Positions 15,479-33,023 of a stretch of 59,804 nt of DNA are shown here, piece by piece. Each line of letters starts with the position of its first letter. The first letter of the stretch is position 1. Where the stretch lies: positions 1-59,804 of the forward strand of contig JBMFMV010000005.1 of assembly GCA_049970495.1 (NCBI GenBank), written 5' to 3'. This DNA is from a bacterium (GTDB lineage Bacteria > DUMJ01). The notes beneath the pieces are model-generated. The model saw only the letters and a list, made by a program, of their open reading frames with translations. It ran no database searches and was not told the origin of the DNA. The translations under genes and the position numbers were made by a program.

Positions 15479-16531
15479 CTAGTAAAGCCAATTCCAGACA
15501 GTCTCAAAATACGCCATTATATTTTTAAAAGGCATACTATTGTCTAATTGGCCTGAAGATGAAGCAGATATTAAACCTCCACCCTTACCAGCTATTTCAA
15601 GGAAGCGTTTTGTCTCAGAAATAACTACCTCAGGTGTTGCAAATGATAGAATCTCTACTGCATCTAAGCCACCTACTAAAACTATTTTATTTCCATGTTT
15701 TTCCTTAAATGATTCATAATCCATTCCTGCTGATATCTCAAGAGGATTAAAACCATCTATGCCACAACAGATAAGAGCATCCATAGCTTTGCTTACATTC
15801 CCATCAGAATGAAATATAACCTTTATTCCCTTTGAATGAAGTGAATGACAAAATTCATATATAGATGGGAATAAAAGTTTCTCCAATAATGGAATCGGAT
15901 ATATTAAATTCTCTTTAAAGGCTATATCGTTCCATATAATAGCTACTGGAGAATCAGTTGGATCTGCCACTGCTTCTATCCACTGTAACGTAGCTTTATC
16001 ACGTGCTCTTGCCCAACGTTCAACCAACTCAGGGTAGTCAGCATATAGGTATATGCCTTGTTCTATTGTTCCTGGGAGAAAAGCAGCACTTATGCCTATA
16101 TGTATATATACCATACCATCAGCCCATTCATTTACTTTTTTCACATGCTCCTTATAAGCCATTATTTCCTCAGGTTTAGGCTTATAAGCTTCATATTCTT
16201 CTATCTCTTCTTTAATCTTTCTCGTAAGATTTTCCTGTGTCCAATCATAAGGCGGTATATCCCAAAATGTCCACCTTTCGTATACCCTACGCGTGCCATC
16301 TGGTAACAGTACTTCAGCAGGTTCGAAAGGTATTCCCTTTATTATTGGATGGCATAAATCAAGACATTTTGAGCAAGCTCGTATCCAAGCCTCCTCATCA
16401 CCTATAGGGATAGGTTTCCCTCCAAAATGTTCGAGAATATCATCATTGATAAGATAATCAAATATTGGTACCCTATCAGGTATCTCCCTATTTAATACTG
16501 CCATTACACGGTCTTTTTTAGTCCAACTCAT
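15479..16531 (-). CDS. Uroporphyrinogen decarboxylase-fold (URO-D-like) protein
   Basis: KDRV.AVLN.EIPDRVP N-terminus; NDIAFK, IFHSDGN, GFNPLE, GGLD and GGG motifs; probable start MSWTKK at 16531. Confidence 0.85.
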   Translation of the reverse strand: MSWTKKDRVMAVLNREIPDRVPIFDYLINDDILEHFGGKPIPIGDEEAWIRACSKCLDLCHPIIKGIPFEPAEVLLPDGTRRVYERWTFWDIPPYDWTQENLTRKIKEEIEEYEAYKPKPEEIMAYKEHVKKVNEWADGMVYIHIGISAAFLPGTIEQGIYLYADYPELVERWARARDKATLQWIEAVADPTDSPVAIIWNDIAFKENLIYPIPLLEKLLFPSIYEFCHSLHSKGIKVIFHSDGNVSKAMDALICCGIDGFNPLEISAGMDYESFKEKHGNKIVLVGGLDAVEILSFATPEVVISETKRFLEIAGKGGGLISASSSGQLDNSMPFKNIMAYFETVWNWLY

Positions 16532-16538
16532 ATATAGC

Positions 16539-17707
16539 CTACCTATAATGTTCACGTAATTCCTTGTGATAAGGAAGAGCAAATATATCATCAATAAGTT
16601 TATTTGCCTGCTCTACAGATGTTACCCATTTGTCTATTAAGACCAATTGAACTAGTAACTCTCGGCTTCCTCTGTTATAGGCTTCTAGTTCGAGCTCAAC
16701 AGGAGCAACTCTATCCCTTAAAATATGGGCAATTATAGGCTTAGGCAATCCTTTAGTCCGGATCCCCTCGATACCACGCTTACTTACGAGGGCAGGGATT
16801 TCAACCTCAAAGTCTCTTGGAATTCCAGGTATATATTCGCCGTCGTTCTGTATATTTACAATAATTACTCTAGGAATATCACAGGTAATAGATTCTATAA
16901 TAGGTATCATTGGTTCACCAGTAGACTGTTTTATATCTAACTGAAATGCTTTGGCAATCTTTACTGATTGGTCCTCCGCTACAGCTCTCAGTCTATTAGG
17001 AGTATTAGAAATATAATCAACATATTTCCACCACCACTCCCTTGAATCAGTACCCCATCGTTCTTCAACACTCTTGTCAGAATGGTACCACCATGGCCAT
17101 GAAGCACCGGTTATACTAGCGGTATCACCAATAGGAATAGCTCCCAACTTACGATATAAATCCATTTTCTTCTTGCCTAACGTGCCTTCTGGGTGGGTCT
17201 TCCAATATTCTTCTGTCTTGGTTTTGAGCCACTCATCTATCATAGGGAATATGTCCTGTCCTTTGTAATATGCGTGAGTAAGCCATATAAAGTGGTTCAC
17301 ACCTGCTATCTCAAAAGTCATATACTCCCTTTCAAGACCTAATACATCAGCAATTTCGTAAACTCCAGCAAAACCATGGCAAAGACCAACTAACTTTATA
17401 TTAGGGTACTTTCGATAGAGATGGGTTGTGCCAGCTAATACAGGATTTGAGACTAATAAGTGCCACGCATTAGGACAAATTTCAAGCATATCTTCAGTGA
17501 TACTTTCAAACAATTTTAATTGATAATAATTTAGCCAGAATGGTTCATCGTATAGAATATGTTATATGCTGAATTTAATCGCTCTTCATTTATATCCATA
17601 ATGCTTATAGTAGATCCATATAGATTCGGTGTTAGGCATAAGTCATGTATCAATCCAACAGTAAAAGACCCTCCAGCTCCTATAATACTTATCTTAATAT
17701 CACTCAC
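16539..17707 (-). pseudogene. GH4 glycoside hydrolase with internal deletion and frameshift
   Basis: N-terminal KISIIGAG...MDINEERLNSAY joins out of frame to HILYDEPFWLNYYQLKLFES. About 62 codons present in the paralog at 19249-20595 are missing. Confidence 0.88.
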
Positions 17708-17748
17708 AGCAAAATGCGCCTCCTTTTTTATCACCTTAGCGATGAGGT

Positions 17749-19239
17749 CTATGTCCTACAGTAGTTGTACAGTTTCTTATATAGAGAAAGGTAGTCCTGA
17801 TATACTTTTTCATAAAAAATAGAGACCTTAGGATCTGGTTTAAAGACTCTGACAATTTTTACTGCCCTCTCAACTGCATCTTTGTAGTTAGAGAAGATTC
17901 CGCATCCAATACCTGCTAATATCCCTGCCCCTAAGACAGAAGCCTCACTATAAAGGGGAACTTCTACTGGTAGATTTAATACATCTGATTTCATCTGAAG
18001 CCAAATATCGCTCTTAGAAGCTCCACCTAGAGCTCTCACCCTCTCTACAGGGATAGAGAGAGACCTTAATAGGTCTATATTCTCCCTTAGCATAAATGAA
18101 ACCGCCTCGACTATGGCCCTTATAAAATGAGCTCGGCTATGATTCAAAGTTACACCAACAAATGCTCCTCTAGCATTAGGGTTGAAGTTTGGGCAAAAAC
18201 TTCCGTTAAAATATGGAATAACTATGAGTCCATCAGACCCAGGTGGTATTTGATTTGCAAGGGATAACATCCTATCATAATCCTCTATTCCATTGATGGA
18301 GGGGAAATTGTCTCTAAACCATCTTAATAGAATTCCTGCTGTCTCTGTATATGGCATAAGAATATATTTGTTCGGTATACAATGAGGAGAGCATGGAACT
18401 CTTCTTTGAGGATCAAAGATAGGTTCATCGGTAGTAGCTATTATAGCTAAGGCAGTGCCAGTAGTCTCCGTTATAATACCTGGTTTAATATTCCCTGCAC
18501 CTAAGGCACCTACCATTTGATCCATACCCCCATTTATAACAGGAATACCTGAGGGTAAACCAAGTTCCTTACTAACCTCTAAGTTAATCCTCCCTATCAG
18601 AGTATGAGATTCCATAATACTAGGCAGTTTTTCGTGTCCTATACCCAAGATATTTAGCGCATCATCCCACCAATCCCTCTTTACAATACTAAGATAACCA
18701 GTAGAGGATGAAACTGAAGGATCAGTAACAAATTCACCTGTTAGCTTCCAGATGAGATAGTCTTTTAGCACAAGAAACTTCGAAGTCTTACCAAAGATAT
18801 CTGGCTCATTTCTTTTGATCCATAAGATCTTACATATAGGCCACATTGGAGAAACTTCAGGTAATCCGGTAGTTCTATACCATAGTTCGATAGGAATTTC
18901 TCTACCAATAATCTCTGATTCTTCCACTGCCCTCGAGTCTAACCAAACTATCACATTTCTTAGTACTTTCCCTTCCTTATCCAAGCAGACTAAGGTCTCT
19001 CCCTGACTAGATAGGCCAATTGCAACTATTGAGGCAGAAGAAACGCTAGATTTTTCTAACACATCTCTTATCCCAGCTTTGCAGCTATTCCAGTATGTAT
19101 CAGCATAAGATTCTACTCTGTTATTTGAGGAAGTCTTCAGTGAATACTCCTGGATAGATAAAGAAACAAGCCCCCCTTTTTCATTAATCAATCCAACTTT
19201 AATCGAAGTAGTACCTATATCTATCCCCAATAGATACAT
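17749..19239 (-). CDS. FGGY-family carbohydrate kinase (xylulokinase-like)
   Basis: LGIDIGTTSIK, SSQGE, WLDSRA, GGMDQ, TGT and LGGASKS motifs. Confidence 0.92.
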   Translation of the reverse strand: MYLLGIDIGTTSIKVGLINEKGGLVSLSIQEYSLKTSSNNRVESYADTYWNSCKAGIRDVLEKSSVSSASIVAIGLSSQGETLVCLDKEGKVLRNVIVWLDSRAVEESEIIGREIPIELWYRTTGLPEVSPMWPICKILWIKRNEPDIFGKTSKFLVLKDYLIWKLTGEFVTDPSVSSSTGYLSIVKRDWWDDALNILGIGHEKLPSIMESHTLIGRINLEVSKELGLPSGIPVINGGMDQMVGALGAGNIKPGIITETTGTALAIIATTDEPIFDPQRRVPCSPHCIPNKYILMPYTETAGILLRWFRDNFPSINGIEDYDRMLSLANQIPPGSDGLIVIPYFNGSFCPNFNPNARGAFVGVTLNHSRAHFIRAIVEAVSFMLRENIDLLRSLSIPVERVRALGGASKSDIWLQMKSDVLNLPVEVPLYSEASVLGAGILAGIGCGIFSNYKDAVERAVKIVRVFKPDPKVSIFYEKVYQDYLSLYKKLYNYCRT

Positions 19240-19248
19240 AGGGCTACT

Positions 19249-20595
19249 CTACCTGTAGTGTTCTCTCATCTCTTTATGATATGGTAGAGATAGTATTTCT
19301 TCTAGAAAAGCTCTTGCCTGTTTCTCACTCTTTGTCCAGGGGTCCATAAGGATAAGCTGAAGGAGTTTCTCTTTACTACCCTCTATATAAGCGGATAATT
19401 CCATCTCTACCGGTGCTACTCTTTCTCTCAGTATGAGACCAATGATTGACTTTGGTAACCCATTAACCTTTATCCCCTGAATTCCTTTCTTACTGACCAG
19501 CGCAGGTATCTCTACTTCAAAGTCCTGTGGAATCTCCTCTATGAACTTTCCAATGTTTGGTATATTTACTTGCAATATTCTTGGTATATCAAGGGCTATA
19601 GATTCTACAAGAGGGATAATAACTTCTCCAGAGCTCTTTGGTGGATAGACTTCGGTTAGCTTCACAGAACTATCTTTGGCTAACCTGTTCATTTCTTCTA
19701 TACGTTGTTTCCCATCCACAAAATATCCTTCATACCAAGTCTTAGGGTCTTCCTTCCATCTCTTTTCTGTCTCGTCATCTATGTGATACCACCAAGGCCA
19801 AGTCCCTCCACCAGGTGTTGCGGTATCTCCAATTGGATATAATCCAAATCTCTTATACACATCTACTGGCTTAGGTCCCATATGATCGCTGAATCCACAA
19901 GTCTTCCAATAGTCTTGTGCCTTTTCTTCAATCCATTTATCTAGCAATGGATAAGCATTCTCCCCTTTATAAGTAAAATGAGTAAGAAAGACAAAATGGT
20001 TTACACCAGGAATCTGAAAGCTTATGTACTCTTTCTCTAGACCAAGGACACTTGCTATATGGTATATACCAGTAAAACCGTGACAGAGTCCTACAAGCTT
20101 TATATCTTTATACTTTCTAGATAAGTAAGTTATACCTGCTAGAACTGGATTTGCAACCTGAATATACCAAGCTGACGGACATAATTCTTGCATATTATCT
20201 AATATAGATTCAAATAATTTAAACTGGTAAAAGTTTATCCAGAAAGCCTCATCATGGACTATATGAAAACTTCCGCCAAATCTATAACCGTACTTAAATG
20301 CTATAGACCAACCTTCTCTAAGTCTATCGTGACTAGCAGATAGAGCAGAGTTTATAACAAAGTCTGCACCTCTTAGAGACTCTCTTAGGTCTAGTGTTTT
20401 TTCTAAATTTAGTCTAACCCCAAGTTCTTCAGCATACCTCTTACATAGGGTATATACAGTATCTAGTCTCTTCTCATTTATATCCATAAAACTGATCGTA
20501 CTTCCCTCAAGACTTGGTGTGAGGCATATATCTCTAACAAGTCCAAGAGAAAAGACTGCACTTCCTGCACCTATAATACTTATTTTTATACTCAT
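19249..20595 (-). CDS. GH4 NAD+/Mn2+-dependent glycosidase (alpha-glucosidase/galactosidase/glucuronidase type)
   Basis: IIGAGSAVF, ANP, VGLCHG, GVNHF and PIGDT motifs. Confidence 0.92.
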   Translation of the reverse strand: MSIKISIIGAGSAVFSLGLVRDICLTPSLEGSTISFMDINEKRLDTVYTLCKRYAEELGVRLNLEKTLDLRESLRGADFVINSALSASHDRLREGWSIAFKYGYRFGGSFHIVHDEAFWINFYQFKLFESILDNMQELCPSAWYIQVANPVLAGITYLSRKYKDIKLVGLCHGFTGIYHIASVLGLEKEYISFQIPGVNHFVFLTHFTYKGENAYPLLDKWIEEKAQDYWKTCGFSDHMGPKPVDVYKRFGLYPIGDTATPGGGTWPWWYHIDDETEKRWKEDPKTWYEGYFVDGKQRIEEMNRLAKDSSVKLTEVYPPKSSGEVIIPLVESIALDIPRILQVNIPNIGKFIEEIPQDFEVEIPALVSKKGIQGIKVNGLPKSIIGLILRERVAPVEMELSAYIEGSKEKLLQLILMDPWTKSEKQARAFLEEILSLPYHKEMREHYR

Positions 20596-20608
20596 ATCTT
20601 TCCCTCCA

Positions 20609-21919
20609 TCACTCTACTGTTGTAATGGTAAATATACTCTTAGGTGGAACAGTAAAAAATATGCCATTATACGGGTAATTATGAGTTTTCATCCTAAGTT
20701 CCTCAACCTTCACACAATTTTCCTCTTCGCTAGTTCTATAGTAGGATAAAACCTTATCCTCTATCTCCCCCTCTATAGAACCGTTAAGATATAAACTCTC
20801 CGAGGAAAAGTTCATACCAACTATTGTTAATTCCTTCTTGTCATCATCTGTAAATGCCAAGATTCTTATTTTATCAGATCCTAAGATAGTTCTTACCTTT
20901 ACAAAACTAGGTCTAACAAATCTATATACCTGCTTAGCGGAGTAGTATCTTTTCTTCGGGGTAAAGACCCTCTGCCCTCTCCTTATTAGACCATATATAG
21001 TCCAGGCTTTATCATGATCATGATAGTTGTCGTAGGCATCCCAGTATATTGCTCCGTTAAATCCTCCCTCTAAGATATTAAAGAGTCTATAGGTAGTTAT
21101 CCATGCTACATACCATTCCATCTCTCCAGATTGGTCTAGATCTCCATACTCACCCATCCAGATGCTACATTTCTTACAGAGACTTTCCTTTACCGTATCA
21201 ACGAACCCTTTAAGGGTCTCTACTGGTATATTAGAGTACATATGCATAGATATTACACCAATCTTTTGAGAGATCTCTGGATCATTTATTAGGTGCTTTA
21301 TATAGTCAGTATTGAAGAATGCCTGCTCAGTTAAAACAAGTTTTATATCTCCTAGCCCATCTTCAAATCTATTAATTAGAGCCTTAATGATCTTAGCAAA
21401 TTCTCCAGAGTCTACCTTCGGACCTTCTGGAGGTCCTATGTCTGTCTCATTTAGAGGACCAAAGAGAGTAAACTTTATACCTTCTCTATTCTTTACCCAA
21501 TCTAAAAAAGAGTACATCATTTCTACAAAATAGTCATATCTAACTAAAGTCTTTCCATCACTAGTCATCCAAGAAGGGACTATTCCACTAGCGGTTATGT
21601 AAGGGCTTATCCCCCTTTCATTTAGGTATCTCATCATACCCCATCCATTCTCAAAATCTTTACTCTTATAGACCTTTTCATAGTTCTTTTGGTTTAGAGA
21701 AGATGGTCCTAATGTATCATCAGGATCTATCCAGTTAGATTTGCCATATACATCAATTCTAAAGAGCCTAGCTCCAAGATCATCGATTAAAAGATCTAAT
21801 ACTGGTTTTAGAGATCCATTTTCCCAGTATTTAGAATTTATATTTACACCAAAACCATCTATCTTCTGATATTTCTCAGATAGATCTATTTTGAAAGGGA
21901 TAACCTCTAAGGGTTTCAT
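20609..21919 (-). CDS. Clan-A glycoside hydrolase, GH30-like
   Basis: YQKIDGFG start, PLNE acid/base motif, WMGEYG nucleophile motif, RFVRP and C-terminal beta-sandwich; no signal peptide. Confidence 0.7.
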   Translation of the reverse strand: MKPLEVIPFKIDLSEKYQKIDGFGVNINSKYWENGSLKPVLDLLIDDLGARLFRIDVYGKSNWIDPDDTLGPSSLNQKNYEKVYKSKDFENGWGMMRYLNERGISPYITASGIVPSWMTSDGKTLVRYDYFVEMMYSFLDWVKNREGIKFTLFGPLNETDIGPPEGPKVDSGEFAKIIKALINRFEDGLGDIKLVLTEQAFFNTDYIKHLINDPEISQKIGVISMHMYSNIPVETLKGFVDTVKESLCKKCSIWMGEYGDLDQSGEMEWYVAWITTYRLFNILEGGFNGAIYWDAYDNYHDHDKAWTIYGLIRRGQRVFTPKKRYYSAKQVYRFVRPSFVKVRTILGSDKIRILAFTDDDKKELTIVGMNFSSESLYLNGSIEGEIEDKVLSYYRTSEEENCVKVEELRMKTHNYPYNGIFFTVPPKSIFTITTVE

Positions 21920-21936
21920 AATAACCTCCCATTACT

Positions 21937-23061
21937 TTAATATTTGTAAGGGTCCATAGCATCTCTTAAACCATCCCCCATAAAATTGAAGGCAACAACA
22001 GTAATTATCACAAAGAAGCTTGGAATGAGTAACCAAGGGTGCAATACTAGTGTTCTGAAATTTTGTGCTTGTTGTAGGAGAACCCCCCAGCTAACTACCG
22101 GAGGACGAAGTCCTAAGCCTAAAAAGCTTAGAGCAGTTTCTCCTAAAATCATACCTGGTATAGACATAGTAATACTAACTATTAGTAAACTGGCTGTAGA
22201 GGGAAGGATATGCCTTAGTATTATTCTTGATTCACTAGCTCCAGCAAGTCTAGCAGCAGTAACAAAATCCTCTTCCCTTAACTCTAAAACTTTTCCTCTA
22301 ACGGTTCTTGCAGTTCCACACCAACCAAAAAGTGAGAGTATTATAGTAATGCCAAAGTATACTTTAACTGCAGACCAGTCTGGAGGCAGAGCAGCTGCTA
22401 AAGCCATCCAAAGAGGCAAAGTAGGTAAAGAGATAAGAAAATCTATAATTCTTTGAATAGCCATATCTACTGTTCCACTATAATATCCGGATATTCCTCC
22501 TAGTATAACACCTAAAGTGAATGATAGAAAAACTCCAATAAGTCCTACAGATAAAGAGATTCTAGAGGCCATAATGATTCTAGAGTAGAGATCTCTTCCA
22601 AGATTATCTGTTCCAAATGGAAAGAGAATATTAGGTTCGTCTATACCAAATAGATGTATGTCCGATTCAAATATACCCCAAAGCCTATACTTATTTCCTC
22701 GAACGAACAATCTTATAGGATATCTCTTTGTCTTATCCTCTGTGTAGACCTTCTCCCAAGTAATCGGGTCTCTCTCAAATTTTAAACCGTAGACAAATGG
22801 GACTAGATGAAATCTTCCATTTTCATCTACAAAATGTATCTTAGTTGGAGGTAAGAATACTCGATCTTTATCCTCTTTGAACGGGTCTTGAGTACAGAAA
22901 AACTCTGCAAATATGGCTATTGTATATAAAATACAGAGTATAATCATTCCTAAAACAGCCAACTTATGTTTTTTAAACCTCCACCATATAAGTTCCCACT
23001 GACTAGCGGTATATATATCTTCACCTGTTTTATTAATTCTTCTTTTCCACATAGATATCAC
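21937..23061 (-). CDS. Opp/Dpp-type ABC permease (DppC-like, oligosaccharide type)
   Basis: GTDNLGRDLYSRI, EAA loop, ETALSFLGLG, GDGLRDA.DP. Confidence 0.92.
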   Translation of the reverse strand: MISMWKRRINKTGEDIYTASQWELIWWRFKKHKLAVLGMIILCILYTIAIFAEFFCTQDPFKEDKDRVFLPPTKIHFVDENGRFHLVPFVYGLKFERDPITWEKVYTEDKTKRYPIRLFVRGNKYRLWGIFESDIHLFGIDEPNILFPFGTDNLGRDLYSRIIMASRISLSVGLIGVFLSFTLGVILGGISGYYSGTVDMAIQRIIDFLISLPTLPLWMALAAALPPDWSAVKVYFGITIILSLFGWCGTARTVRGKVLELREEDFVTAARLAGASESRIILRHILPSTASLLIVSITMSIPGMILGETALSFLGLGLRPPVVSWGVLLQQAQNFRTLVLHPWLLIPSFFVIITVVAFNFMGDGLRDAMDPYKY

Positions 23062-23064
23062 CTA

Positions 23065-24060: not shown

Positions 24061-24087
24061 AGCGTTCCTCCTCCAGGATTATAAGAA

Positions 24088-24109: not shown

Positions 24110-24116
24110 AGGGAGA

Positions 24117-26207
24117 CTACTTCTGCCAATCAAAGAGTGGAGGTTCAAGATATATGGCTTCTGTATAGTAGTAATCGATCCAAGCGGTTCCAGCTATACC
24201 TCCTCCAAGTCCGGTTGGTGGAAAGTTTCTTATATTCTTCCTTATAACAATAGGACCTGGGACCATCCCCACAAGACCAATAGTTAATAGTTGTTCAGTG
24301 CTCCATCTAAATATCTCTTTACCTAGTCGAGCCATATCAGAGAATGACTTGGCGACTTCGAGTTGTTCCCACTTCTTAGTGACTTTTAGTATATCCTCTG
24401 GTGGTTTCTCTCCAATCTTACCGTCAGTTAAATACCACTTTACCCATAGAGGACCCCAGGCGCCATCGCTCCAGTCGTGATAGAGGACATAATGGTTAGG
24501 AGCCATAAAGAGATTATCATCTGTGCAAGCAGCTCCACCTCCTAGGGATAACTGATGAAGATTCCCTATAACTCTCTGATCCCAGAGCTCCCAGCTAGAA
24601 CTCTTTATAGTTACATCTAGGCCTATAGCCTTCCAGTATTTGACTAAAAGTTCTGCTGTGGCAGAAACATCGTAACCTTCCGCAGTACCTGCAGCAATAT
24701 CAAGTATTAAAGATAGTTTCTTACCATCTGGCCTTAGTCTAAATCCATCTGGTCCCTTCTTTAGACCCATACTGTCTAAGAGTTTATTCGCCTTAGCAGG
24801 ATCGTACTGAGTATATGTCTTTTCTAACCCCTTAGTGTAGAACATAGAGATAGGTAAGACAGTACTTGCAGTTGGAGTTCCTTTTCCGAAGAAGAGTATG
24901 TCATTCATCTCATTCCTATTAATAGCAAGAGATAAAGCAATCCTGAATCTCTTATCCTGGAATATCTTTCTTAGGGTCAAGTCATCCTTGTATGTCTGAT
25001 TTACAGATACACATAATCCCCCAGCCCTATTTGCATATGGATAAATAAGAACTTTGTACTGACCCTTTTCTGCATTTTTGGCTAGGGCAGGATAGTTTGC
25101 AGTAGCTATTCCAGGGGCAAAATCGAGTTCCCCTGCTATTGCCATACTCTCGTAGACTTCACTACTAGAGACTACCTTTATAATGATTCTATCTAGATAT
25201 GGTAACTGCTTTCCCTCGGTGTCTATCTTCCAATAGTAAGGATTCCTCTCTAAGACTATCTGAGTCTGTGATCTCTCCTTAAGTATATAAGGAGAGAGCG
25301 TCGGCATCTCGCATACACCACCCCACCCATGCCTAGCCTTTTCTCCAAAGAGTTCGTACCAGAATTTAAATCCTGCTTTTTTTACCATCTCGTCTAGTTT
25401 CTTGGGATCTGTATACTTGGGATGGAATTGCCTTAGATAATGCTTAGGATATTGACACATCTCTTCAGGACCCCAGGTAGCGAGTTTATAAAGTATAGCT
25501 GGATTTGGCGCAGCAAACTCTATTCGAACAGTATAGTCATCAACCTTCTTAAACTTCCACACCTGTCCCCCTAATATCCATCTCCTATCTATCGTCGGTG
25601 TAAGATCTTTGTTTAGAAGTATATCTTCATACCAGAACATTATGTCATCTGCAGTGAATGGTTCTCCATCTGACCATTTTAGACCTTTTCTTAGATATAG
25701 CGTTATAGACTTTAGGTCCCTAGATATATCCCAATTCTTTATTACATTTGGAACATTTGGTCTAGGACGTGCCTCTTCTAGAGTTAGTCCCACATTTGGT
25801 CTTAAAGGTGCCTCCATGTTGTTTATATGTAAGGCATAACCCTGCGAATCTGAAGCAGAAGAAGCGGTAGTTACAGCTCCTCCGTAGACACCAGATTTTT
25901 CAAAGGGGTTTACAACTAAGGGTTCTTCAGGAAGTCTCTTTTCTACTGGAGGAAGTTTTCCCTGTTTTACAAGTTCTGCTAACATAGGAGATTCTTGATA
26001 CTTACTTATCTTCTTTCCTGTAAGTTCTGTGTACTCTTGGGGTGTATTATAGATCCATCTATGGGTCTTGGCCTTTACATACTCTTCATCACTGGCAGGA
26101 ACCCAGGTATAGGGATAACTCTTTTTAGCCTGGGCAAAGGCACTAACCTGCCATAAACTAGTTAACAAGATACTCAATACCACTAATAATGATGCTAACT
26201 TCCTCAT
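24117..26207 (-). CDS. ABC family-5 substrate-binding protein (oligosaccharide-binding type)
   Basis: Signal peptide AFA|Q; ESPMLAELVKQGKLPPVEKRLP, LRKGLKWSDGEPFTADD and RNPYYWK.D.EG.QLPY motifs. Confidence 0.92.
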   Translation of the reverse strand: MRKLASLLVVLSILLTSLWQVSAFAQAKKSYPYTWVPASDEEYVKAKTHRWIYNTPQEYTELTGKKISKYQESPMLAELVKQGKLPPVEKRLPEEPLVVNPFEKSGVYGGAVTTASSASDSQGYALHINNMEAPLRPNVGLTLEEARPRPNVPNVIKNWDISRDLKSITLYLRKGLKWSDGEPFTADDIMFWYEDILLNKDLTPTIDRRWILGGQVWKFKKVDDYTVRIEFAAPNPAILYKLATWGPEEMCQYPKHYLRQFHPKYTDPKKLDEMVKKAGFKFWYELFGEKARHGWGGVCEMPTLSPYILKERSQTQIVLERNPYYWKIDTEGKQLPYLDRIIIKVVSSSEVYESMAIAGELDFAPGIATANYPALAKNAEKGQYKVLIYPYANRAGGLCVSVNQTYKDDLTLRKIFQDKRFRIALSLAINRNEMNDILFFGKGTPTASTVLPISMFYTKGLEKTYTQYDPAKANKLLDSMGLKKGPDGFRLRPDGKKLSLILDIAAGTAEGYDVSATAELLVKYWKAIGLDVTIKSSSWELWDQRVIGNLHQLSLGGGAACTDDNLFMAPNHYVLYHDWSDGAWGPLWVKWYLTDGKIGEKPPEDILKVTKKWEQLEVAKSFSDMARLGKEIFRWSTEQLLTIGLVGMVPGPIVIRKNIRNFPPTGLGGGIAGTAWIDYYYTEAIYLEPPLFDWQK

Positions 26208-26238
26208 AATAATTCCCTCCTCTTCTATAAATTTTCAA

Positions 26239-27582
26239 TTAAACTAATTCAATATTAAGGACCTTACAGAGATCACGGATCTCTTCTTTATGGTCCCCGT
26301 AAATTACAAAGTAATGCTGAGAAGCAATCTTCTGGGCAAATTCTTCTACTGGAACATCTAGTTTGATTTCAAGGCTTGGGAAAAATGGAGCAGGGGCTTC
26401 CCAGCCAAGTTCTTCCCATCTTCTCGGAGGTAACCCCTCACCGGTTACTATATGGAGTTTGTAGTTATCCCCTTTTGAGAATAGCCTAACTAAAGTTAAA
26501 GGGCCTGTCTTCATTCTTGACACATTCATAGCTCCCTCTGATAGTCCTCCCCATCCAGCATACCTAGCAACACAAACTTTACCCTCTGTAGCCCCAGGCG
26601 GAACGAAACCGCAGATACCTACCAAGATCCTATCTTTCATAAACTCATACATCTCTACATAAGGGGCGGATTGGCCAGTGAGATAGTGTATCATAAGCTG
26701 GGTAACTGCACCCAAGGCATCATCCTCACATATAACAGGTAGTTCTTCTGATAACATCGTAAGTATCATACAGGGCGGAAAATTCATATATTTTTTCATA
26801 CCTTCGACGCATTTTATAGAGATAGCGTTATAAGATCCTTCTTTTATCCTTTCTTTGATTGCTAAATATATTCTGATAGCATTTACGAGAGCCTCTTCTC
26901 GAACATCTGGATTAATATTCCAAAACTTTTTCTTCTCTTCAAGAAGATCTTGGACATCTCTATGAGAGACCTTCTCCATTTTTTGGACTATCTCAAGCAT
27001 ATCGAATACCTCTATCTCAGGTCCTATCTTTGCTCTCAGAGACATTCCGTCAAACATACAGACGTAGAGGCCCATATCTGCATATCCCATCATACCAACC
27101 TTAGAATGTCTCAACTTTTTGATCGTTTTAGCAACCTTAGAAAAGGTAAGGACCTTATCTATAGACATCGGCGAATCAGGGAAATCATATATGTACTTAA
27201 ATTTGTAACCCATAGCCTCTAATGTCCATCTTAATCCACTAGTTCCAGCCTGGGAGGCTGGCGAAACTAAAGAGCCGTCTTGGGTATATCCACCTAATCC
27301 CCAAAGAAGTATCGGTTTATCTCTGAACTCATCAGTAACTCTTATAACTATAGGGGATTCGATCCAGCTAGCTATACAGAGGATTAAGAAATCGAAGTCT
27401 TCTTTCTTTAAATCTCCTATAGCTCTATCCGCTTCTTCGAACGTTCCTACAGGAGGAGTATAGACTAACTCTAATCCGGCTCTTTCTAATTCTTCTCTAG
27501 CTTTTTCCGATCTTTTCTCTATCACTTCCCTAGGATATGACACACAACCAAAACCTACAAAACCCGCCTTTACCCTATCCAT
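26239..27582 (-). CDS. L-fucose/L-arabinose isomerase-family protein
   Basis: KVGMMG, AISIKC, CEDD..GA, TLVRL and QH....YGD motifs of the FucI/AraA-like family. Confidence 0.75.
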   Translation of the reverse strand: MDRVKAGFVGFGCVSYPREVIEKRSEKAREELERAGLELVYTPPVGTFEEADRAIGDLKKEDFDFLILCIASWIESPIVIRVTDEFRDKPILLWGLGGYTQDGSLVSPASQAGTSGLRWTLEAMGYKFKYIYDFPDSPMSIDKVLTFSKVAKTIKKLRHSKVGMMGYADMGLYVCMFDGMSLRAKIGPEIEVFDMLEIVQKMEKVSHRDVQDLLEEKKKFWNINPDVREEALVNAIRIYLAIKERIKEGSYNAISIKCVEGMKKYMNFPPCMILTMLSEELPVICEDDALGAVTQLMIHYLTGQSAPYVEMYEFMKDRILVGICGFVPPGATEGKVCVARYAGWGGLSEGAMNVSRMKTGPLTLVRLFSKGDNYKLHIVTGEGLPPRRWEELGWEAPAPFFPSLEIKLDVPVEEFAQKIASQHYFVIYGDHKEEIRDLCKVLNIELV

Positions 27583-27591
27583 AGAGACCTC

Positions 27592-28413
27592 CTATTTTAG
27601 TTCCTTCATCGCGGACTCTACTGAGGCATCATCATGGACTATCTTACATATAGCTCTAAGGATAGGTACGGGGTCTTTCGCTTCCCATATATTACGTCCC
27701 ATAGAGACTCCACCTGCTCCACAATCCATAGCCTCCCTGATGAATTTTAAAAGTACTTCTGGATCATCTGAGGCTGGACCACTAAGGACTAAGTATGGAA
27801 CAGGACAATATTTCACTACTTCTTTGAATGATTCAGGATCACCAGTATAGTATCCCTTTACGATATCTGCCCCTACTTCAGCTGCTACCCTGGCAGAAAA
27901 TTTTATAACTTCAGGATCCTTTGGCCATTCCCTTTCAGCCTTTGTCTCAAACTGATGGATTAATATATCTGGAGGTATCATCTCTATCATAAGGGGCATC
28001 CCCCACAGATCGCATAATTCACTTGTCTTGCCATTCTTTTCGGTAAGCTCTGCCTCTCTAGGCACACCTATAACCCCAAAGGTAGCTACTGCATCTGCAC
28101 CAAATCTAAGAGCTTGCTCTACTGAGGAGATTAAATGATCGTTAGTTAGGTCTGGTCCTATCGATGTAGCGGTTCCATCTATCCTTAGCATAAATGAAAT
28201 ATTTCCTGCGACCTCTTTATATACCTGCTTAGCTATCCCAGGGGTAATTAGAACAGCATCTGCGCCTCCCTCTATTGCTATCTTTACTATCCTCTTTGGG
28301 TCTTCTAGACCCTTCATAGGCTTGATACATATTCCATGGTCAAGAGTAACTAAAACAAGCCTTTTAGTTTTTGAATTGAATAATCTTGCCAGCCTAATTT
28401 CTTTGCCTATCAT
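27592..28413 (-). CDS. Class I aldolase (DhnA/LsrF/ADH-synthase family)
   Basis: LDHG, GADAV, R.AAE.GADIVK (Schiff-base Lys) and GRNIW motifs. Confidence 0.88.
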   Translation of the reverse strand: MIGKEIRLARLFNSKTKRLVLVTLDHGICIKPMKGLEDPKRIVKIAIEGGADAVLITPGIAKQVYKEVAGNISFMLRIDGTATSIGPDLTNDHLISSVEQALRFGADAVATFGVIGVPREAELTEKNGKTSELCDLWGMPLMIEMIPPDILIHQFETKAEREWPKDPEVIKFSARVAAEVGADIVKGYYTGDPESFKEVVKYCPVPYLVLSGPASDDPEVLLKFIREAMDCGAGGVSMGRNIWEAKDPVPILRAICKIVHDDASVESAMKELK

Positions 28414-28438
28414 AAAATATACCTCCTAACTTAAAATT

Positions 28439-29215
28439 TTATGTCAAGATGACTTCTATTCCCTTTTCCTTTAGAATAAGGACTTTTTCAGGTTCTAATT
28501 CTTTATTTGTCACTAATATATCTATCTTTTCTATCGGAGCAATAGGGACTACGCCTCTAGTTCCTATCTTTGTATAATCTGCTGCAACTATTACTGTTTC
28601 TGCATTTTCAGCTACAAGTTTTGTAACTCCGGCATTTTCTGGATCATGCGAAGTAACTCCTTCTTCAAAAGAGAAACCATCAGCACCAATAATGGCTTTA
28701 TCTACTCTGTACCTACTTATATACTCTTCTGCAATTGAGCCCACAAAGCATTGCTCGTTGAATTGATATACTCCACCTATGCCAATAATCTTTATATATG
28801 GGGATCTTTCTAGCTCTTTAATAACCGGAATTGAGTTTGTTATTACCATTATTCCTTTTAATGTTTTTAATTCCTTTGCTACATAGACAAGAGTAGAACC
28901 AGTGTCTAAAAAGAGGGTATCCCCTTCTTTTACTAAACCCGCTACTCCTTTAGCTATTCTCTTTTTTTCAGAGACATTTATTGTCATTTTCTTTTCGAGA
29001 CTTGGTATTGGAAAATCCTTTTTTATCAACTGAACATATCCATAATCCCTTTCTACTGTTCCTTGAGCTTCTAGAATCCGTAGGTCACGTCTTATGGAGG
29101 CTGGAGATACTCCTTTAAAAGTGTTTATTAATTCATTAACAGATATTTTGCCCTTTCTTTCCAGTATTTCTAACAGTTTTTCTCTTCTTTCTACTGAATT
29201 AACTATCCTTCTCAT
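28439..29215 (-). CDS. DeoR/GlpR-family transcriptional regulator
   Basis: SIRRDL HTH, FLDTGST, VITNS and AD.TK motifs; probable start 29215. Confidence 0.93.
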   Translation of the reverse strand: MRRIVNSVERREKLLEILERKGKISVNELINTFKGVSPASIRRDLRILEAQGTVERDYGYVQLIKKDFPIPSLEKKMTINVSEKKRIAKGVAGLVKEGDTLFLDTGSTLVYVAKELKTLKGIMVITNSIPVIKELERSPYIKIIGIGGVYQFNEQCFVGSIAEEYISRYRVDKAIIGADGFSFEEGVTSHDPENAGVTKLVAENAETVIVAADYTKIGTRGVVPIAPIEKIDILVTNKELEPEKVLILKEKGIEVILT

Positions 29216-29253
29216 CTCTAATACCTTTATATTAGTTAGTGTCTTTTGAATAA

Positions 29254-29282
29254 AATATAACATAATATTTCCTAAATGTCAA
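29254..29282 (-). promoter_or_regulatory. sigma70 promoter of the DeoR-led operon
   Basis: TTGACA-17 nt-TATATT with TG extension. Confidence 0.75.
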
Positions 29283-29324
29283 TATATTGTGAATTAAATT
29301 TACATTAAATGTTAACCTAAAGAT

Positions 29325-29364
29325 AAAAAAATAAAAGGTGGACAGCTGTCCACCCTTATTTTTT
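29325..29364. terminator. Rho-independent terminator
   Basis: GGTGGAC-AGCT-GTCCACC flanked by A and T tracts. Confidence 0.85.
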
Positions 29365-30505
29365 AGTACTCGCATAACTTTAGGTATTCATCTACCATAG
29401 CCATAAAATTGTCATACTTTGTCCCTACCGCTATTGTATGGGAAGTGCCAAATATATAACCTCCATTTGGTTTTAGTATCTCCATCGCTTTCCTTACATC
29501 TTTTTTTACATCATCAGGAGTACCACTTACTAGATTTTCTACATTTACCCCTCCCCAAAGGGCAAGTTTGTTACCATAATTTTCTTTCAGCCATCTTAGA
29601 TCCATTCCTGCAGTTTCCTGAATAGATTGGTATGCATCATAACCGGCCTCTACAAACATATCCATAAGTTGGGTATTGTTTCCGCAGGCATGTTTTAGAA
29701 CCTTTAGTCCGAAACTTTTTACATTTTTGACCCTTTCTTTTATTGCTGGTAGACAGAACTCTCTAAACATCTTTGGAGAGATAAAGGGACCTTTATTTGA
29801 GGCAAAATCAGTACCCCACATTACTCCATCCTGACCATCTCTTATATAGTACTTATCGAGTTTATTGGCTCTATATACAGCAACATCTATAGCCCTTTTG
29901 ACCACCTCAGGATTAGTTATATATTCTATGAGTCCCCTTTCCATATCTCCCAATAATATTAGACTGACCTCTCCTCCGCAGGGACCAAGTATGAATTTCT
30001 TACCTCTAAATTCTTTTATAACTACATCTACAACTTCAAACTGGGATTCATCAGGAGGTTCTGGGTCTTCATATTTAAAGTCTTCAAGTCTAAATTCCCT
30101 AGTCCATTTTTGAGGGTCATAAACTAATGTGATGTCCCCTGTTATAGGAGAATATTTGTATATTCTTCCATCTTTAAATTCCCACGTATTTTCATCTATC
30201 TTTCTAGGTTTCTCAGGTTTATAATCCTTTGGTGGGAGTACCGCCGTACACATAGCGGATAGGTTTATTATATCCATAAAATCTAGCTTTTTATAGAGTT
30301 CGATAAGGTCCTCTTCCCAACTTTGGGCAACCTCATCCCTTCTTCCTTCCCATAGGGCTATTTGGGTTTTTGCTTTAGCCCTAAGATAAGTTTCGTGTCC
30401 TAGTATCTTTTCTACCGTATCATAATCTATTGCGTACTCTCCCCAAGGGACTTTATCTGGTATTTTATGCTCTAATACTAGTAATACTCTTTCTCTAGAG
30501 TTCAT
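29363..30505 (-). CDS. URO-D-like protein (second copy; H-x-C motif as in MtaA/CmuA)
   Basis: MNSRERVL...PDKVP, GTDFA..GPFISP, KHACGN, WGGV and GGYIFG.SH motifs. Confidence 0.87.
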   Translation of the reverse strand: MNSRERVLLVLEHKIPDKVPWGEYAIDYDTVEKILGHETYLRAKAKTQIALWEGRRDEVAQSWEEDLIELYKKLDFMDIINLSAMCTAVLPPKDYKPEKPRKIDENTWEFKDGRIYKYSPITGDITLVYDPQKWTREFRLEDFKYEDPEPPDESQFEVVDVVIKEFRGKKFILGPCGGEVSLILLGDMERGLIEYITNPEVVKRAIDVAVYRANKLDKYYIRDGQDGVMWGTDFASNKGPFISPKMFREFCLPAIKERVKNVKSFGLKVLKHACGNNTQLMDMFVEAGYDAYQSIQETAGMDLRWLKENYGNKLALWGGVNVENLVSGTPDDVKKDVRKAMEILKPNGGYIFGTSHTIAVGTKYDNFMAMVDEYLKLCEY

Positions 30506-30996
30506 AGATACCCTCCTAAATAAACTATCTTAATATCTCTCTGGCTATTAATTCGTGTCCCTTTCCTATTCGGATGATTTGGCCAGGAAAGAAGGTCCAT
30601 AATGTCTCCCCCATCCCGTATGTAGTTTTCAAATACCGAAAAGCAATCTACTAGACCAACTTCATATTCTTCTGCAAGCTTTCGAATCTGTTCGGCGTGT
30701 TTTCTTAAAAGATTCCACTGGTCTTTATTCTCCTCAAAGAGGCCACTTGAATCTAGTGTTGGAGTTAATAATAGTACTTTTATATTGTTCTCTAAACACT
30801 TTTCTATCATAGACTTCCACGCCAATTTGGCTTTTTTTAGCCCTATCCTTCTATCATTTAATCCATAATCGATAATTACGATCCATGGATATAATGACAA
30901 GACATCTCTTTCAAATCTTAAAGCTCCCCACTCTGAGTCTTCTCCACCTATCGCAGTAATAATAACATTTAGGTATTTTTTCCTATCTGCAATCAT
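30502..30996 (-). pseudogene. Degenerate SGNH/GDSL esterase
   Basis: Has AIGG, DYGLND and HPN blocks but lacks block I with the catalytic Ser. An extra G at 30559-30561 hides the expected HPNRKGHELIAREILR ending. Confidence 0.75.
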
Positions 30997-31017
30997 GGAT
31001 GCCTCCTGATAAAAATA

Positions 31018-31036
31018 GGGGGACCTTAGGTCCCCC
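31018..31036 (-). terminator. Stem-loop/terminator after the binding-protein gene
   Basis: GGGGGACC-TAA-GGTCCCCC-TATTTTT on the minus strand. Confidence 0.8.
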
Positions 31037-31052
31037 TTTATTAAATATTAAT

Positions 31053-33023
31053 CTACTTTTTAAAGAAGAACTGTTCTGGGTTAAAGTTCTTCGGTGAATG
31101 TAATACCCAACTATAAATCCCTGTCTCAGGGACATTTCTCATATTGTTTTTCACGATGCAGATATCTGGAGGTGAACTAAGCGTCCCTATAACCCAGAGG
31201 TTTTTAGCATTTAGCTTTAATATCTGTTGGAATAATTCTTTTTGCTTTCTATCGCTAGATGTCTTCTTTATCTCTTCATAAAGTTCAATGGTCTTTAACA
31301 GATCTCCTGTAGGTTTTTCTCCAATTTTCCCTCCAGATTGATACCACTGTGCGTAGGCTATAACATGATTAGATTCTGTGCTCCAAGGCATATACCATCT
31401 AGGGTCGATAAGTGGTTGCATTCCAACAGACCCTGTCCATATAGCCACATCATGTTCTAGTGCTGCTTTACGTGTATAGAAAAGCGACCTCTCCTCACTT
31501 TTTACAGCTGTCTTGACTCCAACTGCAGTCCAATATTTGGCTACGAGTTCACAGGCATCGGTCCAAGGACCAAAGGCGGGCGTAAATTCGATTGTAATCA
31601 GTAGGGGTTTACCATCTGGTCTAAGTCTAATCCCGTCCGGACCCCTCTTTAGTCCCATTTCATCTAATAGCCTGTTTGCCTCCTTTGGATTGTAGTCTAT
31701 ATATGCATAGGCGAGCTCTTTAGAGAAGTATCCTGATTCAGGTAATGGTACTACTTGTCTAGGCTCTTCACACATCCCTAGATAACAGAGTTGGTTTATC
31801 TCATTTCTATTTATAGCCAACGACAGAGCTTTACGGAACCTGTCGTCGTTAAAGATCTGTCTAAGGACGGGGTCTTTGTGATTAAGGTTTAATGCTATAG
31901 CCATATTAGTTTCAAAATCATCCTTATACTTGATTACTCTGTAGTCTCCCTTATCTTTATTCTCCATGAAGAGGGTATAGTTTTGCCAAAGGATGTGACG
32001 CGCCTGCATATCTATCTGTCCTGCTACTGCCCTCATATTTATTATCTCTATATTTTCTACAAATTCATGATCCACTCTATCTATATATGGAAGCTGATTT
32101 CCTTCTATGTCTATCTTCCAATAGTAGGGGTTTCTCTCAAGCACCATATGGGGTCTAGTTGACGGTACTACACACTTCCAGGCAGATAATACAGGAATAT
32201 CTGTGTTTAAAAATCTGTCGGTCTTAGTAGAAAATAATTGATACCAGTACTGTACTCCCGCCTCTTTTACTAACGCATCTAGTTTTTCTTTTGGAGTATA
32301 TTTAGGATGGAACTGCTTTAGATAATGTTTAGGATAGTAACATATACCATGCCCTGGAGGACCAGCTAAGTATCTAAGAAACAGTCCATAAGGTTGATCG
32401 AAAACAAATTTAACCACGTAAGTACTAACTTTCTGGACCTTGCCTAATTTTCCTCCGATTGTAAGCCAGGCAGGTTTTGTAGGTGTCAATTCATCATTTA
32501 GAACTATATCCTCATACCAAAAGAGTATATCATCTGCAGTAAACGGTTGGCCATCAGACCACTTCATTCCTCTTCTCAGATAAAATGTAAATTCTTTTCT
32601 ATCGGCGCTTATCTTCCAACTCTTGGCAATATTTGGGACTAGATCCTTTCCATCTGGTGAAAAATAGATAAGTCTCTCTGTAGTTATTCTATCTGGTCCT
32701 GGCCCATCTGCTCTACCTAACCATGCCCTACGCCATGTTCCTCCATACTGCCCTACCTCTTCTACTGGGACTATCACAAGAGGCTCATCCGGTAATCTTT
32801 TTTCTACAGGAGGTAGCTTTCCCTGTTTTACCAACTCTGCTAACATAGGTGCTTCTTTGTACTTTGTAATCTTTTTACCGGTCGCTTTAGTGTACTCTGC
32901 TGGCGAATTGTAAAACGCTGGAGAAGGCATCTTTGCTTGAGAATAAGCAGATTCAAGTGAGGTTAAGAAAAAACAAATAACTACTAAAACTGAAAAACCG
33001 ACTATTAAAAATTTCCCTTTCAT
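31053..33023 (-). CDS. ABC family-5 substrate-binding protein (paralog of 24117-26207)
   Basis: Signal peptide; EAPMLAELVKQGKLPPVEKRLP, WSDGQPFTADD and RNPYYWK motifs. Confidence 0.92.
   Translation of the reverse strand: MKGKFLIVGFSVLVVICFFLTSLESAYSQAKMPSPAFYNSPAEYTKATGKKITKYKEAPMLAELVKQGKLPPVEKRLPDEPLVIVPVEEVGQYGGTWRRAWLGRADGPGPDRITTERLIYFSPDGKDLVPNIAKSWKISADRKEFTFYLRRGMKWSDGQPFTADDILFWYEDIVLNDELTPTKPAWLTIGGKLGKVQKVSTYVVKFVFDQPYGLFLRYLAGPPGHGICYYPKHYLKQFHPKYTPKEKLDALVKEAGVQYWYQLFSTKTDRFLNTDIPVLSAWKCVVPSTRPHMVLERNPYYWKIDIEGNQLPYIDRVDHEFVENIEIINMRAVAGQIDMQARHILWQNYTLFMENKDKGDYRVIKYKDDFETNMAIALNLNHKDPVLRQIFNDDRFRKALSLAINRNEINQLCYLGMCEEPRQVVPLPESGYFSKELAYAYIDYNPKEANRLLDEMGLKRGPDGIRLRPDGKPLLITIEFTPAFGPWTDACELVAKYWTAVGVKTAVKSEERSLFYTRKAALEHDVAIWTGSVGMQPLIDPRWYMPWSTESNHVIAYAQWYQSGGKIGEKPTGDLLKTIELYEEIKKTSSDRKQKELFQQILKLNAKNLWVIGTLSSPPDICIVKNNMRNVPETGIYSWVLHSPKNFNPEQFFFKK

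Follow-up and report, generated by a model that had tools for sequence, protein, structure and literature searches.

In the fucose and rhamnose pathways (FucI-FucK-FucA and RhaA-RhaB-RhaD), an aldose isomerase, an FGGY ketose kinase and an aldolase act in series to give dihydroxyacetone phosphate (DHAP) and an aldehyde, often under DeoR-type control. Here we describe a locus with the same kinds of enzymes at positions 15479-33023 of a 59,804-nt stretch of bacterial DNA (the window; contig JBMFMV010000005.1) from genome G000 (GCA_049970495.1; 1.99 Mb, 95.5% complete, 143 contigs). Other genomes, relative loci and contigs are given G, L and C numbers. The locus comprises 15 co-oriented open reading frames (ORFs), all on the minus strand (ORF list with Pfam and NCBIfam domains). 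It is a sugar utilisation locus of an ordinary kind in an unusual variant, with an isomerase-kinase-aldolase cassette inserted beside a pair made up of a binding protein (SBP_B) and an enzyme of the URO-D fold (URO-D2); a second URO-D-fold gene (URO-D1) lies at its other end. All genes listed in an initial annotation of the sequence are present (Pfam/NCBIfam), although only one of the two GH4 copies is intact, the other being a pseudogene, and the N-terminal block of the SGNH esterase is missing.

Unlike the fucose and rhamnose systems, the cassette misses the FucI, FucK and RhaB models, and its aldolase is of the class I DhnA type, whereas FucA and RhaD are class II enzymes. The Thermotoga rhamnose regulon was rejected as a match because Thermotogales are described, in part of PMC3870299, as using canonical RhaD. 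Sulfoglycolysis is similar in that SftI is the sole named model matching the isomerase over its full length and in that the sulfo-EMP pathway runs in the order isomerase, kinase, class I aldolase. The SftI score is low, however (91 against a cut-off of 700), and the cassette kinase is an FGGY protein, in contrast to the sulfo-EMP kinase, which we take to be PfkB-type. With Thermotoga-type oligosaccharide loci, the cassette shares large family-5 sugar-binding proteins, Opp-type permeases and a GH4 enzyme nearest to AglA, but it has no ATPases, and the literature examined does not attribute an isomerase-kinase-aldolase route to loci of that kind. The Lsr system for autoinducer-2 (AI-2) likewise has an FGGY kinase and a DhnA-family enzyme (LsrK and LsrF); the scores against both lie below cut-off, and the cassette, unlike Lsr, has an isomerase and glycosidases and lacks LsrG and a ribose-type transporter.

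Finally, the corrinoid methyltransferases (MtaA/MtbA, CmuA, O-demethylase methyltransferase I and CdmBCA) resemble URO-D2 in their fold and H-x-C-G-N motif, and G000 encodes RACo and a corrinoid protein for which docking could be modelled. They differ in the low MtaA/CmuA scores of the window proteins, in a His found in place of Cys, in the lack of a corrinoid gene nearby, and in a G000 context of glycosidases and sugar-binding proteins instead of C1 or aromatic metabolism. The locus thus remains, as first annotated, one for sugar import and catabolism that matches no named pathway, all equivalog models being missed except for a marginal pass with XylB. Full-text literature searches found no description of this route or gene set, or of URO-D proteins in sugar loci.

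Organisation and boundaries of the block

We somewhat favour a mosaic of three units (modules A, B and C) over a single pathway; as a whole, this explanation has module B encoding an isomerase-kinase-aldolase route and module A the SBP_B and URO-D2 pair. In the relative locus L001, URO-D2 (92% identity) is followed directly by the MFS transporter gene (87%) and by ZnADH, PMT2 and SIR2 (84-86%), in the order of the window but with no cassette. One side of the L001 intergenic DNA matches the window just past URO-D2, and the other side matches the hairpin, promoter and start of the MFS gene, so that about 13.9 kb (roughly 15455-29350, DeoR through URO-D1) is present or absent as one indel. Judged by this alignment, the ~13.9-kb module B is an accessory insert next to URO-D2. 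It consists of DeoR, aldolase, isomerase, a second family-5 binding protein (SBP_A), two permeases, GH30, GH4, FGGY, a second GH4 (GH4') and URO-D1. Orthologues of its isomerase (92-97% identity) occurred only in G001 and G006 among 61 genomes searched; in the same-genus genomes G002-G005, the best isomerase match is only 24-26% identical (paralogues), yet URO-D2 is found at 88-92% in 4/4. To judge by their coordinates, L001, L002 and L005 probably correspond to contigs of G005, G002 and G004, respectively, so these loci are not independent of that count.

Terminator-like and promoter-like sites coincide with the joints found by comparison with L001. Such hairpins follow URO-D2 (29357-29334), URO-D1 (15452-15434) and both binding-protein genes, and strong promoter-like sites precede DeoR (11/12 matches) and the MFS gene (12/12); promoter-like sites overall were not enriched over shuffled sequence (consensus scan). 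The block is therefore probably not one operon, as far as such signals can tell. Although the 15 ORFs do form the co-oriented block of the initial annotation, the consensus sites split it into three units, as follows, and co-oriented neighbours in these genomes should not be taken as one system.

31053-33023, minus: module A, SBP_B, family-5 binding protein, 656 aa, signal-peptide-like N-terminus (Pfam SBP_bac_5, 6.3e-65)
31017-31037, minus: GC-rich hairpin with T-run, terminator-like, just after SBP_B (9 pairs, 7 GC; consensus scan)
30502-30996, minus: module A, SGNH/GDSL esterase remnant, 164 aa, without the N-terminal block (PF13472 match)
29363-30505, minus: module A, URO-D2, URO-D fold, 380 aa, invariant H272-x-C274-G-N and H356 (PF01208, 88.8 bits)
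29334-29357, minus: terminator-like hairpin after URO-D2, left cassette edge (consensus scan and junction alignment)
29254-29282, minus: promoter-like site before DeoR, TTGACA-17-TATATT, extended TG (11/12 matches, consensus scan)
28439-29263, minus: module B, DeoR-family regulator (DeoRC and HTH_DeoR domains)
27592-28413, minus: module B, DhnA/archaeal-type class I aldolase, 273 aa (PF01791, DeoC/LacD, 7.7e-42)
26239-27582, minus: module B, FucI/AraA-superfamily aldose-ketose isomerase, 447 aa (weak Fucose_iso_C and AraA_central matches)
24117-26207, minus: module B, SBP_A, family-5 binding protein, 696 aa (Pfam)
24109-24088, minus: hairpin after SBP_A (consensus scan)
21937-24060, minus: module B, two Opp-type permeases, 23065-24060 and 21937-23061 (BPD_transp_1 and OppC_N)
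20609-21919, minus: module B, GH30-like hydrolase, 436 aa, no visible signal peptide (PDB 7n6h)
19249-20595, minus: module B, GH4 NAD-dependent glycosidase, 448 aa (both GH4 domains)
17749-19239, minus: module B, FGGY sugar kinase, 496 aa (XylB TIGR01312)
16539-17707, minus: module B, second GH4 (GH4'), pseudogene (deletion relative to L108/L112)
15479-16531, minus: module B add-on, URO-D1, URO-D fold, 350 aa, H241-S-D243-G in place of H-x-C (PF01208, 43.1 bits)
15434-15452, minus: terminator-like hairpin, right cassette edge, homologous to the hairpin after URO-D2 in L001 (consensus scan and junction alignment)
15405-15377, minus: module C, promoter-like site (12/12 matches, consensus scan)
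14103-15344, minus: module C, MFS efflux-type transporter (MFS_1 and MFS_3 domains), which would form a separately promoted unit

Two start sites deserve comment. DeoR homologues align only from residue ~41, and the true start of DeoR is probably an internal Met near 29215, as suggested by these alignments; URO-D1 starts at the ATG at 16531 (350 aa) and not at 16594.

The alternative is that the 17.5 kb form a single integrated system for the breakdown of a decorated glycoside, in which both URO-D proteins are dedicated steps of the isomerase-kinase-aldolase pathway. We consider this improbable, and sequence linkage already largely refutes it. All genes are adjacent and co-oriented, and the full order of modules A and B is kept in L108 and L112; L110 shows it starting with the SGNH gene, the retrieved stretch containing no SBP_B (80-96% identity across these loci). 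In L120 and L130, too, the cassette has URO-D-family genes in its vicinity, but these are different paralogues (25-30% identity). The linkage test drew on 127 matched stretches, 88 of which encode URO-D2 relatives; 80 were kept (41-92% identity, many phyla), 64 of them at least 8 kb long, and were searched with the 15 block proteins (tblastn, E<=1e-10, query coverage >=50%). The isomerase, aldolase, DeoR and GH30 were each found in 0/80 loci, FGGY in 3/80 (29-33% identity) and GH4 in 5/80 (24-25%). URO-D2 also occurs without the cassette in all four sister genomes and abuts the MFS gene in L001. URO-D1, in turn, is internally deleted in G006 (L101 953-1557) and absent in G001, where GH4' abuts the MFS gene (L102). 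Terminator and promoter pairs stand at the joints, and a density of 29 URO-D genes per 2 Mb would make adjacency by chance common. Thus, the initial picture of a system built around two URO-D enzymes is not supported, given the 80 loci and the missing or degraded URO-D1 of the sisters. Lack of conserved linkage is what the initial annotation had named as its own refutation, and the URO-D genes fail on that count.

The isomerase-kinase-aldolase cassette

The isomerase family has invariant E286, D288, E310, E313, H377 and H423, and its acidic motifs line up with motifs of L-arabinose isomerase (4r1o) that contain Glu, at residues that are presumably catalytic or metal-binding in AraA. SftI (NF048012) is the only named model over the whole protein, at 91.3 bits, and the same is true of the isomerases of L104, L105 and L113; fucI (TIGR01089) reached 22.5 against a cut-off of 850, and no block protein had an NCBIfam match to RhaA. 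The FGGY kinase narrowly passes XylB (TIGR01312; 384.7 against 380.25), the only equivalog model passed, and misses fuculokinase (169.5 vs. 470.9), rhamnulokinase (71.9 vs. 527.95) and LsrK (249.7 vs. 528). For the aldolase, the scores were 249.5 with PRK07226 (cut-off 241) and 150.1 with LsrF (cut-off 297), and its nearest solved structure is MJ0400 (2qjg, 1.6e-62).

Among the upstream functions, the intact GH4 (19249-20595) matches PF02056 (134.6) and PF11975 (120.5) above the Pfam cut-offs and is nearest to the T. maritima alpha-glucosidase AglA (1obb, 2.3e-102). The GH30-like protein shows weak similarity over residues 11-423 to the GH30 xylobiohydrolase AcXbh30A (7n6h, E 8e-12); no Pfam family scores above cut-off, GH59 coming to 23.3 bits against 27. 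Among solved structures, SBP_A is nearest to family-5 proteins that bind sugars, with 5ipw, SPH1118 (7ver) and the alpha-galactoside binder 6epy as the closest. No ABC ATPase was found among the block ORFs (Pfam), so that the five-part Opp/Dpp set is incomplete in the block, which supplies its binding proteins and permeases only. The nearest ATPase pair (36876-38847) belongs to a divergent Opp operon, and further OppD/F-type genes lie elsewhere in G000. This divergent Opp/Dpp-type system (33478-38847) is complete, with a binding protein, two permeases and two ATPases, and it also adjoins SBP_B in L002, L108 and L112 (94-97%). The ATPases needed by the cassette might come from this system.

From these parts, we infer the following route for module B. 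SBP_A and the two permeases would import an oligosaccharide or glycoside under DeoR control, with ATPases supplied in trans, and the GH30 and the NAD-dependent GH4 would cleave it in the cytoplasm. The released aldose would be converted to a ketose by the metal-dependent FucI/AraA-like isomerase and phosphorylated by the XylB-like FGGY kinase, and the DhnA-type class I aldolase would split the product into DHAP and an aldehyde. As for the sugar, we lean towards the gluco or xylo configuration, for example in a pentose or in a hexose that is 6-deoxy or 6-substituted.

We examined how far this gene set travels with the isomerase. A metagenome scan gave 23 isomerase loci, and neighbours were examined in the 12 of at least 4 kb. 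Four close relatives (89-95% identity) keep the cassette order. Among eight distant ones (47-69%), FGGY flanks the isomerase in 6, the aldolase is present at >=67% in 3 and at 31% in one more, DeoR in 3 and GH4 (70-83%) in 2. Four genome loci with isomerases at 27-43% identity have FGGY in 3, a PfkB kinase in 2 and the aldolase in 1. Other isomerases stand with an aminotransferase, a GFO oxidoreductase and SIS (L104, L113) or with GH28 and an esterase (L126, L127). G000 itself has a paralogous cassette on C22 (L105 5152-12871) with GH38 pieces, aldolase (71%), isomerase (32%), GNAT, FGGY (33%) and a creatininase-family gene, and this paralogous cassette is also seen on contig C8 of G006 (L107). 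By these comparisons, the conserved unit is the isomerase plus a XylB-like FGGY kinase, which the aldolase frequently joins and GH4 or DeoR often accompany. The cassette recurs in uncultured lineages and is a candidate new sugar route.

The kinase also bears on a rather unlikely alternative, in which module B serves xylo-oligosaccharides (fragments of acetyl- or glucurono-xylan), the isomerase is a non-orthologous xylose isomerase, the kinase is a xylulokinase and the aldolase has another purpose. Besides the XylB score in the window, the kinases of cassettes elsewhere reach 352-383. No canonical XylA (TIGR02630) was matched in the 95.5% complete G000, by a search that was positive in 5/14 reference genomes as a control; two G000 FGGY kinases nevertheless pass the XylB cut-off. 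The best solved GH30 relative is a xylobiohydrolase, and GH4 relatives include TM0752-type enzymes, which we take to be alpha-glucuronidases. However, the resemblance to GH30 enzymes is weak, the nearest solved relative of the GH4, AglA, is an alpha-glucosidase, and another G000 kinase matches XylB better (430.7 bits). Moreover, the distant isomerase loci contain aminotransferases, GFO oxidoreductases or GH28, not xylanases. The aldolase cuts both ways: it adjoins the isomerase in the window and likewise in L105, L117 and L130, and is separated from it by the kinase and GH4 in L120, but isomerase and kinase pairs also occur without it.

This last point weighs against the proposed route itself. 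A XylB-level kinase would fit a pentose route needing no aldolase, and the aldolase is missing from the isomerase and kinase loci L126, L127 and L104, so aldol cleavage may not belong to the conserved route.

Assembly of a sulfoglycolysis-like or 6-deoxyhexose route from non-orthologous parts is very improbable. In that scheme, GH4, as the alpha-glycosidase, and a SftI-like isomerase would be followed by FGGY phosphorylation at C1, class I aldolase cleavage to a C3 aldehyde, and export by the MFS transporter. The cassette aldolase falls in the Pfam DeoC/LacD family, to which the sulfo-EMP aldolase YihT presumably also belongs, and the only full-length isomerase model is that of SftI, which is reported to be the isomerase of the SFT pathway (part of PMC7491151). 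Apart from the low SftI score, neither a GH31 sulfoquinovosidase nor a reductase or dehydrogenase for sulfolactaldehyde was found among the 15 block ORFs (Pfam), and the efflux-type MFS gene, although it follows the cassette, belongs to the backbone.

URO-D2 and the URO-D family

URO-D2 keeps different company. Its constant partner in the closest loci is the binding protein, of which an orthologue (66-93% identity) lies directly upstream of URO-D2 in L002, L005, L006 and L008. SBP_B at >=49% identity was found in 5/80 URO-D2 loci, all of them closest relatives, and SGNH and MFS in 1/80 each. Farther away, annotation was limited to neighbour clusters present in at least 3 of the 80 loci, and the counts are lower bounds: at least 9 loci have a sulfatase, 8 GH38, 7 GH42, 7 GFO/IDH/MocA, 6 DUF6807, 5 GH4 and 4 an SSF transporter. 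In L009 and L012-L016 (Anaerolineae/Chloroflexia), URO-D2 orthologues (~60%) sit in a recurring block of sulfatase, GH38 and GH42.

The protein itself is unusually conserved, at ~60% identity across phyla. A word-indexed search gave 1767 proteins at E<=1e-3, and a profile search gave 302 representatives of 50% clusters at E<=1e-30 and 4805 at E<=1e-10. These homologues carry no database name beyond 'URO-D family' or 'hypothetical', and the ESM Atlas clusters are unnamed URO-D.

URO-D2 also belongs to a large expansion. G000 has 29 PF01208 matches, 28 of them above cut-off, making up about 1.5% of its called ORFs, and the seven genomes of its family have at least 19-29 each. The 54 other sampled genomes mostly have 0-2, with exceptions in G050 (26), G058 (at least 28), G043 (11), G042 (10), G012 (10) and G024 (9). 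By hand count from the Pfam table, 20/29 URO-D genes of G000 are no more than three ORFs away from a glycoside hydrolase (GH2, 3, 5, 29, 38, 42, 78, 116, 130, GHL6, GH4 and GH30) or a sugar-type ABC component. Three more stand by other sugar enzymes, and 6/29 have no sugar neighbour (FTHFS, methionine genes, CobW, DUF1638).

Moreover, G000 encodes 34 large (~650-700 aa) family-5 binding-protein paralogues against ~7 permease pairs of the cassette's type. A URO-D gene adjoins a large paralogue of this kind in 5/29 cases against 0.8 expected, a number reached in 1/5000 permutations (crude ORF calls). Many binding-protein genes of G000 stand alone beside a URO-D-fold gene (C21, C22, C27, C28, C32, C73, C90 and 29363-33023 of the window). 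Module A is one of these many pairs of an orphan binding protein and a URO-D-fold enzyme. This lineage-wide expansion in glycan loci is the most interesting lead to come from the locus, and it lies outside the frame of the initial annotation.

As to chemistry, both proteins are modelled as URO-D folds (pLDDT 94.8 for URO-D2 and 95.0 for URO-D1), and their top Foldseek matches are HemE and a MtaA-like methyltransferase (TM 0.62-0.70, 14-17% identity; 4ay8 is the top match of URO-D1). The view that the two fall outside the named types was borne out by the model scores. With HemE (TIGR01464, cut-off 302.95), which has no more than the fold in common with them, URO-D2 reaches 26 and URO-D1 has no match; with MtaA/CmuA (TIGR01463, cut-off 235.4), they reach 58.3 and 27.9. 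The H272-x-C274-G-N motif and H356 of URO-D2 are invariant in a 32-sequence alignment, and in a profile alignment H-x-C-G-N falls on the identical letters of 4ay7, a MtaA-like chain. We take this to be the MtaA zinc motif, whose aligned positions bind Zn in MtaA. H356 aligns where the G000 paralogues on C73, C24 and C45 carry Cys, those on C73 and C24 being among the most canonical. The best PDB sequence match of URO-D2 is CdmB (9rui), a chloromethane methyltransferase component according to part of PMC13222342.

Corrinoid machinery is present in G000, scattered over three contigs: one RACo activase (C25 13645-15447), a single stand-alone 212-aa corrinoid protein with D-x-H-x-x-G (C48 7204-7839), and a MetH-like protein with homocysteine-methyltransferase and pterin parts but no B12 domain (C77 1716-3431). 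FTHFS stands beside one G000 URO-D gene, and a Wood-Ljungdahl sink for methyl groups was rejected, as G000 gave no CdhC/ACS match. Among the 61 genomes, RACo is found in 15/15 with at least 5 URO-D matches against 12/46 of the rest, and a stand-alone corrinoid-protein homologue (ORF <300 aa, identity >=45%) in 14/15 against 4/46. The stand-alone gene adjoins a URO-D gene in G003, G006, G012, G024, G059 and G034; in G003 and G006 the corrinoid gene abuts a MtaA-like URO-D gene, and G002, G005 and G006 have a ~595-aa ORF that fuses URO-D and B12 parts.

A complex model of URO-D2 with the G000 corrinoid protein scored 0.79, against 0.42 for the best of 3 controls. The mark used for such scores is reached by 58/80 solved complexes and 2/110 mismatched pairs, counts that hold roughly for the own alignments used here. 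Model runs agreed in >=94% of contacts, with partner pLDDT >=85, and the modelled interface (274-275 and 359-361 of URO-D2; 103/106 and 178-180 of the corrinoid protein) brings the cofactor faces together.

Anaerobic removal of methyl groups from sugars by URO-D proteins is thus plausible. In module A, SBP_B would deliver its ligand to a shared permease, and URO-D2 would process it in the cytoplasm, most likely by Zn- and corrinoid-dependent methyl transfer (O-demethylation), using the single stand-alone corrinoid protein of the genome. Of the three activities first proposed for the URO-D proteins, demethylation drew some indirect support from the H-x-C register, the co-occurrence with RACo and corrinoid proteins and the complex model, whereas decarboxylation and hydrolysis drew none. 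More broadly, and only tentatively, the URO-D paralogues may form a novel enzyme class that processes carbohydrates: substrate-specific, Zn- and corrinoid-dependent O-demethylases, each coupled to a dedicated binding protein or glycosidase, which would hand their methyl groups to a single common corrinoid, RACo and MetH-like module.

Several points weigh against this scheme. The 20/29 count was made without a background control. RACo and URO-D expansion may both merely track anaerobiosis, and 7/15 of the URO-D-expanded genomes are one family and hence not independent. Classical methyltransferase operons carry their own corrinoid protein, and a homologue is absent from the 80 URO-D2 loci, the 23 isomerase loci and the window (tblastn, E<=1e-5). 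The metal motif differs among the G000 paralogues (H-x-C, H-x-D, D-x-D, H-x-H) and the URO-D1 family has invariant H241-S-D243-G, so that the family need not share one chemistry. The lone corrinoid protein and the C77 protein could together be a split MetH. Finally, since methyltransferase-corrinoid complexes have already been solved, a passing complex model indicates likeness, not binding.

The same points lend themselves to another possible, though doubtful, account, in which the paralogues are not methyltransferases but other cofactor-independent or metal-dependent sugar enzymes (for example, decarboxylases, hydrolases or epimerases), with corrinoid machinery devoted to methionine synthesis alone. 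There is no corrinoid gene near any of the 80 URO-D2 loci and one corrinoid protein for 29 paralogues, and the C77 protein resembles the N-terminal half of MetH. H-x-D and D-x-D variants would suit hard Lewis-acid metals over thiolate chemistry, and the MtaA/CmuA scores are far under cut-off. This account sits poorly with the H-x-C-G-N register common to URO-D2 and the MtaA-like chain, with stand-alone corrinoid proteins that track URO-D expansions and adjoin URO-D genes in six genomes, and with a predicted URO-D2-corrinoid complex that passes its controls.

Methylated sugars block ordinary glycan breakdown, and the URO-D family is a candidate for how strict anaerobes deal with this. The only sugar demethylation route found described in our literature searches is an oxygen-dependent P450 (part of PMC6292453). 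The mlp clusters appear in part of PMC10418091 as methyl-sulfur/selenide clusters, with no mention of sugars in that part. If the O-demethylase scheme is true, it would be an anaerobic counterpart of the P450 route, with URO-D2 as its most widely conserved member. Beyond the 19-29 genes per ~2-Mb genome of this lineage, further URO-D expansions occur in unrelated anaerobes.

Decayed and neighbouring genes

Genes at the periphery of the modules show decay. GH4' consists of an N-terminal remnant (17531-17707, 58 codons) and a C-terminal ORF (16539-17513, 324 aa), between which 184 nt present in L108 and L112 are lacking. This deletion is out of frame, has its junction near 17561 and is flanked by a short CATAT repeat; the gene is intact in L102, L108, L110 and L112. 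The SGNH ORF has 164 aa against 218 aa in the L108 orthologue, the missing 54 aa being the N-terminal block. Its PF13472 match begins at profile position 33 of 178, and the catalytic Ser block of SGNH hydrolases presumably lies within the missing part. The SGNH gene is absent between SBP_B and URO-D2 in L002, L006 and L008. Together with URO-D1 of G006, these are three separate internal deletions in peripheral genes, although, with G000 in 143 contigs, they could be assembly artefacts rather than real decay.

In L101 (13465-14193) and L109 (601-1329), DeoR is only ~55% identical to that of the window, whereas the cassette copies are otherwise 94-99% identical, a divergence that suggests a recombination boundary at the regulator. 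Elsewhere in the window, transketolase is split (43969-45730), its N- and C-terminal halves being separate ORFs in a housekeeping operon downstream of pheST.

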